In this document: in pieces, positions 413-32,575 of the stretch
Numbering within the stretch: position 1 is the first letter of the stretch
How the letters are laid out: each line of letters begins with the position of its first letter
NCBI GenBank assembly: GCA_023268615.1
Contig: JALQUC010000026.1
Coordinates: 1 to 40,000, forward strand
DNA: 40,000 nt
DNA from: Candidatus Altimarinota bacterium
GTDB lineage: Bacteria; Patescibacteriota; Gracilibacteria; BD1-5; JAGOOR01
Reading direction: 5' to 3'
Translations under genes and position numbers: made by a program
Notes under the pieces: generated by a model
The model's input: the letters and a program-made list of their open reading frames with translations, nothing else
What the model was told of the DNA's origin: nothing
The model's database searches: none

Positions 413-946
413 CTAAAGAAATGTAAAATTGCTCACATCCTCCCCTCTCTGTATCATCTCACGAATCCGCGTCCCTGAGATATCTATCTCGTAGGAATCA
501 ATCCACTCGGTCTGGATACCATGGCGTGCACAAATATCCCTCACCCATTCGTTGCCGGTAATAAGAGTAAGTGATGTGATTCCCTGTCATTGCGAACCTG
601 AGCTTGTCGAAGGCGAAGCAATCCATTCCCTGGATCGCGTCGTCATTTCATTTCTCGCGATGACGGGAGAAGTAAGTGCTTTCAAATTCTCGCACCAGAT
701 ATCATCGTCTGGGACATCATCCAGTCAGACGATATCCATCCGCTCTTGGAGCTCGAGAGGGATACTCGCGCGGATGATTTCTTCGCGTTCCTGGAGTGTC
801 CAGGGATTCTCATCAGTACCAGATTTTTCTGCAGAACCGATGACGAGCATGAGTCGTTTGTATTCTGTGAGAATTTTTTCCACGATGGAATAATGCCCAA
901 TATGAAATGGCTGGAATCGTCACAAAAAAATCGCTGTTTTTATCAT
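413..946 (-). CDS. nicotinamide-nucleotide adenylyltransferase-like (archaeal NadM-type cytidylyltransferase family)
   Basis: Manual translation: MIKTAIFLGRFQPFHIGHYSIVEKIL...LVIGSAEKS...NPWTLQEREEII...ISGTRIREMI. The (T/H)xGH motif is GRFQPFHIGH. Two in-frame TGA (725-727, 587-589). TAG stop at 413-415. Carries a 35-codon insertion (see 574-670). Confidence 0.75.
574..670. mobile_element. 97-bp MITE-like palindromic element inserted in frame, flanked by 8-bp direct repeat AGTAAGTG (566-573 and 671-678)
   Basis: Terminal inverted repeats TCCCTGTCATTGCGA / TCGCGATGACGGGAGA and a central palindrome GCAATCCA-ttccc-TGGATCGC. Identical 8-mers flank it. Element + duplication = 105 bp = 35 codons. 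Confidence 0.65.
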
Positions 947-28020: not shown

Positions 28021-29136
28021 ATGCACATAGAACTCGACTCCGATACGCTCTTCACCGCCATAAAAACGGTCGCTCATGCTGTCATAAATAGCCCTACAAC
28101 GCCAATACTCGAAAATGTCCTCCTCCGTGCGACTAATGAGAAGCTCACGGTCGTGGCGAATAATCTCGAGATGGCTATCGAGTATACGATTGAACATGAT
28201 ATCGAGATAAAAGAACCTGGCGATATCACTGTTTCGTTTCGTTTTCTCGCGTCGTATCTGAATCTCCTGGATCCGACTCGTCTCAAGATAAAAACTGACA
28301 CTGGGCACACACTCAATTTCACAGCAAATAAACAAAAAACGAGATTCAAGGGACTCTGAGCAGACGAATTCCCGATGATTCCAGCAACTCGGAGAGATAC
28401 GAAATTTCGCATGAGCTCAGATGTTCTGAAACGAGCTTTTAGCAAGACACTCTTCTCCTGTGCCAGCGGAAATATCCGTCCGACTCTCGCTGGTGTCTAT
28501 ATCCAGCTCCATACTGATCATATCACTTTTGCCTCAACGGACAGCTTCCGCCTCTCTGAATATCGATACAATTGTGACACGGGTGTAGACAAGAAAATCG
28601 CCATTATCCTCCCTGCGAGAAGTGCCAGCGAGATGATGAAGACTCTCCCTGATGGCGTCGATGTTGAGGTCTATTTCGCAGACAATCAAATCCTGCTCGT
28701 GTACGAAAGTGTTCTCTTCTACTCTCGTCTCCTCAATGGTCACTTCCCAGACTACGCCAATTTCTTCCCAAAAACAACAAGCATCAACGCGCTCACCAAT
28801 AGATCAAAACTCATACAATCTCTCAGGCAAGTGAGTCTCATCGCTCGAGAAAATAATTTTAATGTCAAAATGGCTCTCGATAGTAGCGGTGTTATCCGTC
28901 TCGACTCTGGAGATACAGAGCTTGGTGCGAGTGAGACAGAAGTCCCCGCAGAAATCGAGGGAAATGACCAAGTCGGGCTCAATGCGACTTATTTTATCGA
29001 TGCCCTCCAAGTCGTCGAGGGTGACGATGTCCGTGTAGGATTTGAGACCAGCCTCTCGCCTATCCTCATCCAGGGAACGAATTTGAATACCGCAGAAGAG
29101 GACTTCCGACACATTATCATGCCACTCAAGATTTAA
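28021..29136 (+). CDS. dnaN: DNA polymerase III beta sliding clamp
   Basis: Fragments 28006..28359 and 28375..29136 share a frame across one TGA. TPILENVLL, TLAGVYIQ..ITFASTDSFRLSE, SRLLNGHFPDY, C-terminal IIMPLKI. Start set to ATG 28021. Confidence 0.9.
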
Positions 29137-29216
29137 TTATAAATTAAATCTTCAATACAAAATTAAAAGTGCAAAGAGCAAAATGGAGGATTTTTATTGA
29201 TAAACAGAAACAGTTT

Positions 29217-29351
29217 TTAGGGGTAGAGATATGCCTTGAATGGCATATCGTAACTGTCTGAGCGGGATGAATACAGATATAGAGATGAACCTGGTCTATA
29301 GCGAGTTTGAGTTCCCCTAAATGCTTTTGGTACTTTTGGCAACAAAAGTAC
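29217..29351 (+). ncRNA. candidate structured RNA / leader in the dnaN-recF spacer
   Basis: Closing helix TTAGGGG(29217-23)/CCCCTAA(29314-20) encloses GATATGCC-ttgaat-GGCATATC (8 bp) and TATAGA-N11-TCTATA. It is followed by a perfect 9-bp hairpin GTACTTTTG-GCAA-CAAAAGTAC (29330-29351, GNRA loop) 25 nt before the recF ATG. Strand uncertain. Confidence 0.3.
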
Positions 29352-29376
29352 AATAGAAACAGAAAAAATATCACGA

Positions 29377-30675
29377 ATGAAACTCTCCCTCTACCAATTC
29401 AAACATTATTTGGATAAGTCTCTCGAAATATCCGAGGACCTTCAAGTCGTCGTCGGTAATAACGGTTCTGGTAAATCCACTCTCTGTGAAGCACTGAGTA
29501 TTCTCGTGAATGCGAGTAATCCCCATCACACGAGTTGGGAAGAGAAAAACTCCTTTGCAAAGGAGCTGTTCGAGCTTGTCGAGGACTGAGGATTTTCTGA
29601 TACAAAATCCCCCTCTTTGAATTCTGCTCCTTCATCCCCCTTTACAAAGGGGGTTTGGGCTCTACGACTCGAACTGAGTGAAGTACTCTTTCAGTCGATT
29701 TTTGACGGTCAGAATTGTTCACCAAAATGGCATATGGATGAGTCATCGTGTTCAAAGCCAAAGTACGAAGACAAGATGCCGTATCGGGCTTTTTGGATAC
29801 AGAGTGATCATCTGCGTGTCATCTCAGGTGAACCAAGTGAACGGAGAAATTTCCTCGATGATATGCTCACATTTGCCAGTCCTGGATATGAGAAAATTCT
29901 ACGAAATTATCGTACAGCACTCACCTCTCGCAATCGTGTGATTCAGTCAATTCTGGACAAGGAAGCACGAAAGGAAGACCTCTCTTCCTGGAATACGCTT
30001 CTCGCAGAATACGCTGTGCAGGTCATCCGAGAACGAAGAACATTCTTCACATGGTTCAATTCTCCGTCATCCTCGGGCGACTGAGTGCAAGCGAAGCGTC
30101 GCGAAGAAGACCCGGGGATCCAGGTGAATAATTTACCATGAAATGGTTCTTATAATGTATCAGAGATGGATTCCACCTCGCGTCATTCGACAAGCTCATG
30201 ACTTGGCTGGAATGACGGGCAACAACTTTGAACTTTCCTACATCTCCCAGGTCCGGTCAGAATAGAGCTCTCGGAGCGACATACACTGGAAGAAGTAACC
30301 AAAGAAGCATTTCTGAAACTCCTCGCCGACTACACCGAACGAGACCTCGTGGTGGGTCGTACGACCGTAGGCCCTCATCTCGATGAGATTAGTTTTTCTG
30401 TGGAGATGTATAATGTCTGGCAATCAACCAAATATATCCTCTCTCGAGGAGAAAATAAAATTCTCCTCCTCGCCTTTATCCGACTCCTGGGGAAATATGT
30501 GGAGGAAAATTCCTGAAAAAAACCCTTCTTCCTGCTCGATGATGTCCTCTCCGAACTTGATGAAGATCACACACATATCCTCTGCCAGCTCTTCGCGGAT
30601 ACGACGACAATCATGACCACTCAGCCCAATCATACAGCGGGCCTACCCACTGATATTACCATGACGAAGTTGTAA
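29377..30675 (+). CDS. recF: DNA replication and repair protein RecF
   Basis: Walker A GNNGSGKSTL, SGEPSERRNFLDDML, GPHLDEISF, signature SRGENKILLLAF, Walker B FFLLDDVLSELD. One frame from 29377 to TAA 30673-30675 through seven TGA. 432 aa, longer than I expect for a RecF because of two repeat-derived segments. Confidence 0.85.
29568..29674. repeat. palindromic segment inside recF (CCCCCTTT-aca-AAGGGGG core, GTTCGAG/CTCGAAC ends)
   Basis: Outer inverted repeat GTTCGAG(29568-74)/CTCGAAC(29668-74), inner GTCG/CGAC, core hairpin CCCCCTTTACAAAGGGGG. Encodes ..GGFSDTKSPSLNSAPSSPFTKGVWAL.. just after the Walker A region. Confidence 0.4.
30064..30219. mobile_element. 156-bp composite palindromic element in frame inside recF
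   Basis: CCGTCATCC...GGGGATCCA, an AT-rich centre, then TGGATTCC..CGTCATTC..GGAATGACGG. Same GTCAT...ATCCA / TGGAT...ATGAC building blocks as 574-670 and 32431-32496. 52 codons, three TGA, no TAA/TAG. Confidence 0.55.
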
Positions 30676-32418: not shown

Positions 32419-32430
32419 TTTTTTATTGCA

Positions 32431-32496
32431 TGGATTGCTTCGTGCCTCGCAATGACGGAAGCCTGTCATTCCGAGAAGGTGCGACGAAGGAATCCA
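32431..32496. repeat. 66-bp intergenic palindromic element of the same family as 574-670
   Basis: TGGATTGCTTCGTGCCTCGCAATGACGG-aagc-CTGTCATTCCGAGAAGGTGCGACGAAGGAATCCA. Imperfect hairpin with ~30-nt arms, between the reductase stop and marR. Confidence 0.8.
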
Positions 32497-32575
32497 AGAA
32501 ATGAACACCCAAAAAAAGAGTAACAACCTCTTGCAAATAGTATTTTATGTCTAAACTATTCAGTAATAAAGTATT

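Follow-up and report, generated by a model that had tools for sequence, protein, structure and literature searches.

Introduction

Rickettsia palindromic elements (RPE) are said, in work attributed to Ogata et al. from 2000, to be inserted in frame in protein-coding genes. MITEs (miniature inverted-repeat transposable elements) are short, non-coding, multi-copy sequences with terminal inverted repeats that sometimes lie in frame in genes, and systems that consist of repetitive extragenic palindromic (REP) doublets forming hairpins and REP-associated tyrosine transposases (REPIN-RAYT systems) were reportedly set out by Bertels and Rainey in 2011. Here we describe a 156-nt composite palindromic element that lies in frame inside recF, at positions 30064-30219 of a 40,000-nt stretch of DNA (the window; bases 1-40000 of contig C24) from genome G000, an uncultured ~1-Mb Candidatus Gracilibacteria metagenome-assembled genome (MAG) of the Candidate Phyla Radiation (CPR). 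The element is a dimer of CGTC-tagged REP units, and we consider it probable that it is a selfish, RPE-like dimer that is translated as a tolerated loop of RecF.

The closest described elements are the CGTC REPs (PMC3733652; Di Nocera, De Gregorio & Rocco 2013, BMC Genomics 14:522). Units of this class have an unpaired CGTC or TGTC (also CCTC) end, an 8-9-bp stem that opens with two pairs of complementary A-T residues, a loop of 4-5 nt, a length from which some families depart, and a CCA tail. They mostly form dimers with outward-facing tags (HH) and spacers of 1-100 nt that possibly contain small stem-loops; heterodimers are known, and there is no linked transposase. Many intragenic CGTC REPs lie in replication and repair genes, a bias that is unexplained, and in Xanthomonas different REPs share one recB site across related species. 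Their hosts belong to 5 phyla and are mostly Alphaproteobacteria, Gracilibacteria not being mentioned; how they spread is described as unknown, and their present mobility is left open. The same study equates RPE-4 with CGTC-4 and RPE-6 with CGTC-1 (PMC3733652).

The recF element is a heads-out dimer of two CGTC-tagged units

The gene and the parts of the element are the following.

29377..30675, plus strand: recF coding sequence of 432 codons; TGA occurs six times in frame and is read as Gly (code 25)
30064..30219, plus strand: CGTC-tagged REP heterodimer, HH (tags outside), 156 nt, 52 codons, residues P230-G281
30064-30122, plus strand: left arm, CCGTCATCCTCGGGC...CCCGGGGATCCA, GC 0.64
30064..30122, plus strand: L-type unit with head CGTC at 30065-30068, stem ATCCTCGGG/CCCGGGGAT, a 33-nt structured interior and tail CCA at 30120-30122
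30123..30166, plus strand: centre spacer, 44 nt, GC 0.30, with a small hairpin ACCAT-GAA-ATGGT at 30135-30147
30167-30219, given in plus-strand letters: right arm, TGGATTCCACCTCGCGTCATTCG...CTTGGCTGGAATGACGG, GC 0.55
30167..30219, minus strand: R-type unit, reading head-first CGTC ATTCCAGCC ... GGTGGAAT CCA, with an inner hairpin GTCAT/ATGAC and a 35-nt interior

The original prediction, made from the sequence of the window, had placed an in-frame composite palindrome of 156 nt at this position, and both its sequence and its frame are as claimed. The element is in phase with recF, its length is a multiple of three, and it carries three in-frame TGA codons (30082, 30139 and 30199) and neither TAA nor TAG; the AT-rich centre with its own hairpin is likewise present. 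The encoded peptide starts with Pro and includes VQAKR / REEDPGIQVNNLPGNGSYNVSEMDSTSR. The stem of the L unit comprises 9 bp including one T.G pair, and that of the R unit, ATTCCA-CC/GG-TGGAAT, 8 bp with one G.G mismatch. On the minus strand the R unit has its CGTC head at 30217-30214, and its CCA tail appears as TGG at 30167-30169 on the plus strand. The outer ends form a terminal inverted repeat, CCGTCAT(C)C / GGAATGACGG (CCGTCAT/ATGACGG), and a family-specific extension, GCAACAA (the reverse complement of TTGTTGC), runs to 30226. The spacer ends on its 3' side in TATCAGAG, a conserved lead-in that is common to other R-type copies. Since the loop flanks have diverged, the exact junction with recF is fixed only to about two codons.

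The repeat family was not visible to the in-window repeat finder (seed 10), as the copies share merely short invariant ends. BLAST against the element's own genome splits it into two halves, each with a separate set of copies, and both halves follow a common unit plan, C/T-GTC-AT[stem...stem]AT-CCA. A scan with this pattern gave 27 matches in G000, compared with 3 in the reversed and 9 in the shuffled control, and the family amounts to about two dozen units scattered through the genome. All 22 units analysed carry the C/TGTC head, and stem pairs 1-2 are A-T and T-A in 22/22; stem positions 3-6 are paired in 20-22 of the 22, with three pair types, and positions 7-8 in 14-16, while the ATCCA ending was required by the scan and is present in the scanned units by construction. 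The long L and R forms each occur in 13/19 genomes of the genus at 74-96% identity (74-93% for L copies), and neither was found in 37 other genera sampled in the order, so that 1/38 genera is positive. The L-spacer-R composite also occurs at G001:C30, with 76% identity over 156 nt. In G000, HH dimers were found in recF, nadM, pepF and an oxidoreductase gene, and at C36:1094-1274 and C12:26523-26702. Short units with 4-5-nt loops are present in the same genome, at C2:16908 (CGTC ATTCCCGC GTAG GCGGGAAT CCA; loop GTAG) and C2:19487 (loop GAAA).

Compared with the published CGTC REPs, the recF units agree in head, stem, CCA tail, the habit of forming HH dimers and the lack of a repeat-flanked transposase. 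They differ in having structured interiors of 33 and 35 nt in place of 4-5-nt loops, although short canonical units exist in the same genome. Further likenesses are the repair genes among the hosts (recF, mfd and a mutY-like gene) and the reuse of one site by different REPs; further differences are the CPR Gracilibacterium host, code 25, the small size of the family and the restriction of the long L and R subfamilies to a single genus of those sampled. With RPE the element shares its nature as a palindromic repeat that interrupts housekeeping genes in frame, a host-dependent bacterium with a small genome as its host, absence from orthologues and a surface-exposed position, and here too the in-frame insertion leaves the host fold preserved; this link rests on description and on the equation of RPE-4 and RPE-6 with CGTC REPs (PMC3733652). 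In contrast to RPE, the recF insert needs UGA=Gly to stay open, and the copies are more conserved than flanking synonymous sites, suggesting recent or continuing activity. REPIN-RAYT systems and the bacterial interspersed mosaic elements (BIMEs) of E. coli are similar in having an inverted doublet of REP hairpins as the repeated unit and in forming populations of like sequences within and between related genomes, but the tag here is CGTC and not GTAG, there is no RAYT and many copies are intragenic. Like MITEs, the repeats are short, non-coding and multi-copy, have a terminal inverted repeat and in some cases lie in frame in genes; no target-site duplication is visible at recF and no parent insertion sequence (IS) with matching ends was found.

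recF is otherwise intact and is read with UGA as glycine

The genome G000 comprises 966 kb in 44 contigs and is 92% complete; among public genomes, those closest to it are MAGs that carry the label Candidatus Gracilibacteria or, in some cases, wrongly that of Peribacteria. The recF open reading frame (29377-30675) stays open solely when TGA counts as a sense codon. At codon 380, TGA falls within a conserved S-G-K-K-P motif, at a position occupied by Gly in RecF proteins of the PDB and in several orthologues with GGN codons. A tRNA with anticodon UCA lies at G000:C34:11371-11449, immediately upstream of tRNA-Gly(GCC); ARAGORN labels it as selenocysteine (SeC), and it fits the UGA=Gly suppressor-type tRNA of code-25 lineages. 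Because TGA codon 380 aligns with Gly and the UCA tRNA stands beside tRNA-Gly(GCC), the genetic code of G000 is code 25, in which TGA encodes Gly.

In keeping with the original prediction, in which recF appears to tolerate the repeat, the gene is otherwise intact. Its product matches TIGR00611 (recf) with 173 bits, and Walker A, the signature motif S-R-G-E and Walker B/D-loop are invariant in an alignment of 106 RecF sequences. An AlphaFold2 model built on this alignment has a mean predicted local distance difference test (pLDDT) of 81.9 and a predicted template modelling score (pTM) of 0.79, a confident RecF fold; it replaced a model from an alignment of 10 same-genus sequences, which had reached a pLDDT of 34. 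The only segments of low confidence are residues 70-89, where pLDDT falls below 50, and 233-282. They correspond to two insertions, both modelled as disordered loops, one of them the element described above. The other, which corrects the original prediction, is a second and unrelated repeat insertion in the same gene:

29557..29655, plus strand: second recF insertion, residues A61-V93 in place of 4 orthologue residues, from a different ~108-nt palindromic repeat family

This family has about 10 copies in G000 with 69-89% identity; the residue 61-93 insert is also found in G004, and G001, G010 and a close Joint Genome Institute (JGI) relative hold unrelated inserts at that site. A third insertion hot spot follows the ...ISFSV(E/N) strand, at about window position 30400, where G002, P0003 and P0014 have an additional 30-45 residues that differ in sequence; G000 has nothing inserted there.

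When the model was used to search the PDB, the best 11 matches were all RecF structures (TM 0.66-0.76, normalised to the target). In the alignment to chain 5z67, query residues 226-307 match 205-240, the same excess as that seen against orthologues. In the model the 156-nt insert comes right after the long helix 199-228 of domain II, which would place it at the far end of the RecF arm, away from the ATPase head.

As its 1.3 kb contain two repeat insertions and the 240-nt spacer upstream of it also bears a repeat, recF might be taken for a decaying pseudogene of a reduced genome, in which repeats mark the decay. We regard this as very improbable: the gene contains no frameshift and no TAA or TAG, the three ATPase motifs are invariant and the fold is confidently predicted. 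Moreover, recF is under purifying selection and is not a pseudogene, because 66/78 substitutions in its flanks, relative to the JGI relative, are at third codon positions. For annotators, such inserts combined with code 25 make genes seem broken or over-long, and genes of this kind are not to be called pseudogenes.

The insertion site is empty in most relatives and variously occupied in a few

recF genes from 18 other genomes of the same genus were aligned, 17 of which cover the site (the contig of G012 ends just before it). The stretch from ERRKFF to LPGP is an uninterrupted 66 nt in 14/17 orthologues and 225 nt in G000, a net gain of 159 nt. As a check, the original prediction had asked whether a gap against orthologues maps exactly onto the element. 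The gap does open between S229 and Q282, and 3 of the 159 nt are due not to the element but to an extra TGA codon at 30229-30231. That the segment is foreign to RecF was thus borne out, as it is missing from most orthologues and matches dispersed genomic repeats. Two further genomes are occupied. G001 has an additional 114 nt of the same family in inverted order, R unit first and L unit last, with a much shorter interior, and G017 an additional 99 nt consisting of an L unit and a spacer that ends in the R lead-in TATCAGAG, the R unit being missing. All three inserts are multiples of 3.

In a RecF tree calculated without the insert columns, G000 groups with the empty G006 and G016 (support 85/85), and G001 and G017 fall in another clade, among empty genomes. 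Three changes of occupancy state are needed in 200/200 bootstrap trees, although the strongly supported branches alone force no more than one. An almost identical insert is carried by the JGI relative (protein P0003, on 4 contigs; its loci come from three samples, which are independent assemblies with the same recF insert). The comparison delimits one block of near-identity:

30052..30248, plus strand: block of 197 nt that is nearly identical in G000 and the JGI relative, with 1 mismatch and 0/65 third positions changed

The recF flanks show 9.9% mismatch between the two genomes and 25% at third codon positions, giving a binomial P of about 3e-8 for the block; in the 6 kb of aligned neighbourhood the sole other perfect run of at least 60 nt is one of 71 nt in dnaN. 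At site 1 (residues 61-93) the inserts of the two genomes are unrelated, and a further one occurs in the relative at the third site. Since the content of site 1 is wholly different between them, recF is mosaic on this time scale.

These data bear on the question of whether the occupied segment of recF spreads between related lineages as an allele cassette, by homologous recombination, rather than by transposition into the site. Identity with the JGI relative exceeds the repeat by 12 nt on the left and 29 nt on the right, an extension that, with a divergence of 10%, would be free of mismatches with a probability of about 0.013. G000 and G001, though apart on the RecF tree, share derived flank residues (W-F/L-N-S before the insert and L-TGA-T/D after it, with the extra TGA codon), and the mosaic structure of the gene speaks in the same direction. 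On the other hand, the inverted element of G001 with its much shorter interior is not simply the same cassette, the branches separating carriers have only moderate support (82-88%) and no donor was identified. We therefore think that cassette exchange is possible but somewhat doubtful as the explanation for the distribution.

In-frame dimers recur in other genes of the lineage

In-frame REP dimers are a general habit of this lineage. Besides recF, they are found in G000 in nadM, pepF, mfd, a GT4 glycosyltransferase gene and the gamma-alpha linker of a 2-oxoacid:ferredoxin oxidoreductase. The copy in the nadM-like gene (NMN adenylyltransferase, 413-946) lies within the window:

582..668, minus strand: HH dimer in the nadM-like gene, 87 nt, in frame

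Its units read CTGTCAT TGCGAA...GAAGCA ATCCAT and CCTGGAT CGCG...CGCG ATGACGG. The original prediction had seen the same modules in recF and nadM, and the two do share the NGTC head, the stem starting with AT and the ATCCA tail. The pepF insert adds a net 189 to 192 nt relative to the empty genes of G008 and G014, and at this site G000 and G006/G013 carry quite different dimers that are not alignable by blastn. Relatives have in-frame dimers in mfd (same site, different dimer), in a MutY-like glycosylase gene in two species and in a methyltransferase gene. The intragenic inserts are in each case flanked on either side by Pfam domains, none of which extends over them. Among the six host genes of G000, recF and mfd are repair genes, to which mutY is added in relatives, numbers too few to test for a bias.

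Several observations concern the loci of relatives. The mfd gene of G006 (L064) carries two inserts, an R unit and a dimer of an L unit, spacer and short unit. The mutY-like site is occupied in L065 (G001) and L069 (G008) in differing frames, and the methyltransferase gene is L076 of G006. The pepF gene of G002 (L097:1009-1551) has, at the same codon position, a 504-nt in-frame insertion bounded by G/C-rich palindromes (GCCCCCCTGTCAAGGGGGG ... CCCCCCTTGACAGGGGGGC), which presumably resembles a DUF559/Vsr-type endonuclease domain.

The use of reading frames bears on whether such copies are translated at all. Among seven independent sense-oriented intragenic L units, six share one reading frame (PSSSG[ND]GVQA...PGIQ) even though none of the three sense frames is closed (estimated P about 0.02); this bias fits selection on the translated product and argues against removal before translation. 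Inteins and group I/II introns were considered as candidates and rejected, the former as the insert has 52 residues, starts with Pro and lacks intein features, the latter as 156 nt is too small. Rfam gave no match at the gathering threshold over the whole window and none at E <= 1 on 29100-30300, and blastn against a phage collection gave none either. Removal by intron-like splicing, by RNA processing and ligation or by programmed DNA excision would suit the strong self-complementarity of the element, whose ends are joined by the terminal inverted repeat. Yet the frame is kept, without TAA or TAG, by all three inserts at the recF site and by each of the remaining intragenic copies that were checked, which would be needless if they were removed, and this, together with the frame bias and the missing resemblance to any intron, ribozyme or intein, makes removal a far-fetched explanation.

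We also asked how far the genetic code matters for such insertions. Across 12 dimers, 48/72 frames are without TAA and TAG (code 25), versus 20/72 that are also without TGA (code 11). Code 11 closes the frame that recF uses, and the invariant end ATGACG carries a TGA in one frame. With UGA=Gly, such an insertion is therefore roughly twice as likely to leave the gene open, a concrete instance of stop-codon reassignment relaxing the barrier to in-frame repeat insertion.

A tolerated selfish insert is the favoured explanation

We propose that a non-autonomous selfish repeat, made of two CGTC hairpin units arranged heads-out around a spacer, landed in or recombined into recF, probably in the variable loop with which the long helix of domain II of RecF ends. 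This copy would have survived because it added a whole number of codons and had no TAA or TAG in frame, and its three TGA codons would be harmless because the organism decodes UGA as glycine. The element would be transcribed and translated with recF, yielding about 52 disordered, hydrophilic residues that protrude from an otherwise normal RecF ATPase, a peptide that is probably functionless. The conserved hairpin plan, whether acting as DNA or as RNA, points to recognition by an activity that mobilises or recombines the repeats, or else to gene conversion or lateral exchange that still goes on between copies. Insertion of CGTC REP or RPE-like repeats in frame is a known phenomenon; new here are the CPR host lineage and the long-interior subfamily, and in the searchable literature we found no report of in-frame REP/RPE-type insertions in the CPR. 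The points of particular interest are the dependence on UGA=Gly, the reuse of codon positions in recF and pepF by different elements and in both orientations, and the 197-nt identity island, which gives a means of asking whether CGTC REPs continue to move.

Several results weigh against this explanation. One concerns folding, which the original prediction had put forward as a check: the right unit folds as DNA with z = -3.3, but the left unit does no better than its shuffles (z = +0.4) and the RNA fold of the whole element is not significant against shuffles (z = -1.1). Because of these two values, the claim of structure rests on covariation in the family and not on energy. RNAalifold on 15 L copies gave 18 pairs, 5 of them with compensatory changes, and the T.G pair of the L stem is retained in 14/15 copies; in 13 aligned long-form R copies the inner stem covaries (GTCAT/ATGAC, GCCAT/ATGGC and GTCTT/AAGAC), with double changes in 4 pairs. 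A second concern is the conservation of sequence. The recF element and orthologous copies elsewhere are far more conserved than nearby synonymous sites, which is unexpected for a passively decaying insert. In the ferredoxin-oxidoreductase gene, G000, G017 and G002 show hardly any difference in an orthologous L unit and in the first half of the spacer that belongs to it, the flanks being 68-85% identical, and the partner unit in G017 has a different stem that is fully compensated. The variable columns among L copies fall on the three codon positions 5, 1 and 4 times, without third-position excess, so that the peptide is not what is conserved: in L units it is the nucleotide sequence, although copies were found by similarity and ascertainment inflates the apparent conservation of the dispersed ones. 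Furthermore, co-transcription and translation of the element with recF are deduced from its sequence.

Part of this evidence would suit an element kept for a function in cis, either as an RNA hairpin acting on the processing, stability or translation rate of recF mRNA or as a hairpin or cruciform of DNA to which a host protein binds, in which case the added residues would be a by-product; such a function would partly overlap with the selfish origin favoured here. It would account for the single mismatch in the block of near-identity as opposed to 10% in its flanks, for the oxidoreductase L unit, for the compensatory changes in the stems and for variation that is not biased towards third positions, and the retained T.G pair suits RNA or one particular strand. 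We nevertheless judge a cis function unlikely. Most orthologous recF genes work without the element, the mRNA of G001 would carry its complement, close relatives have quite different dimers at their pepF site, no Rfam family matches, and high identity could equally follow from recent spread, gene conversion or ascertainment. For the identity island itself, recent spread, gene conversion, lateral exchange and hairpin constraint cannot be separated here.

The means of movement is the last point on which the selfish reading is weakened. The original prediction had proposed to define the termini and any target duplication from other copies; units and ends are indeed defined by the genomic copies, but there is no direct repeat at the recF junctions of G000, G001 or G017, whose loop flanks have diverged. 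Y1 genes were searched in the 19 genomes of the genus, and no mobilising enzyme for the repeats was identified. The sole Y1 (HUH) transposase gene of G000 (PF01797; C14:262-700) matches the IS200 model NF033573 with 109 bits and reaches 27 bits with the REP-associated transposase model NF047646, for which the cut-off is 80; it is thus not a RAYT. This tnpA, of the IS200/IS605 family, contains two in-frame TGA codons and is flanked by CCCCG...CGGGG hairpins, one of which is followed by GTAG, and not by CGTC units. A Y1_Tnp gene is present in 4/19 genomes of the genus, compared with 13/19 for the repeats, and G001, which has the most repeat copies, is without the gene. The IS200-like tnpA was accordingly rejected as the mobiliser of the CGTC repeats, as neither the ends nor the occurrence match.

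A more far-reaching view is that the CGTC dimers of this genus are an active replicator that is targeted to, or exchanged between, specific loops of repair genes (recF, mfd and mutY) and of some housekeeping genes. Its nucleotide sequence would be preserved from species to species, and the change of UGA to Gly, by which most of its reading frames are opened, would have made it viable. We hold this to be improbable; if it were true, the repeated, orientation-independent occupation of recF and pepF would mean site-specific insertion or cassette recombination by an undiscovered enzyme, and not mere tolerance.

Other repeats in the neighbourhood

The window contains one dimer of the opposite arrangement, outside genes:

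32428..32497, no strand assigned: intergenic TT dimer (tags inside) between a flavodoxin-like gene and a MarR gene

The 240-nt spacer between dnaN and recF (29137-29376) holds a repeat of about 150 nt, with a GGTACTTTT..AAAAGTACC hairpin and conserved flanks, for which Rfam gave no match. At least 12 copies of it exist in G000, with 70-94% identity, and several adjoin R-type CGTC units. The IS200-like tnpA has one such copy directly downstream of it, at G000:C14:782-941.

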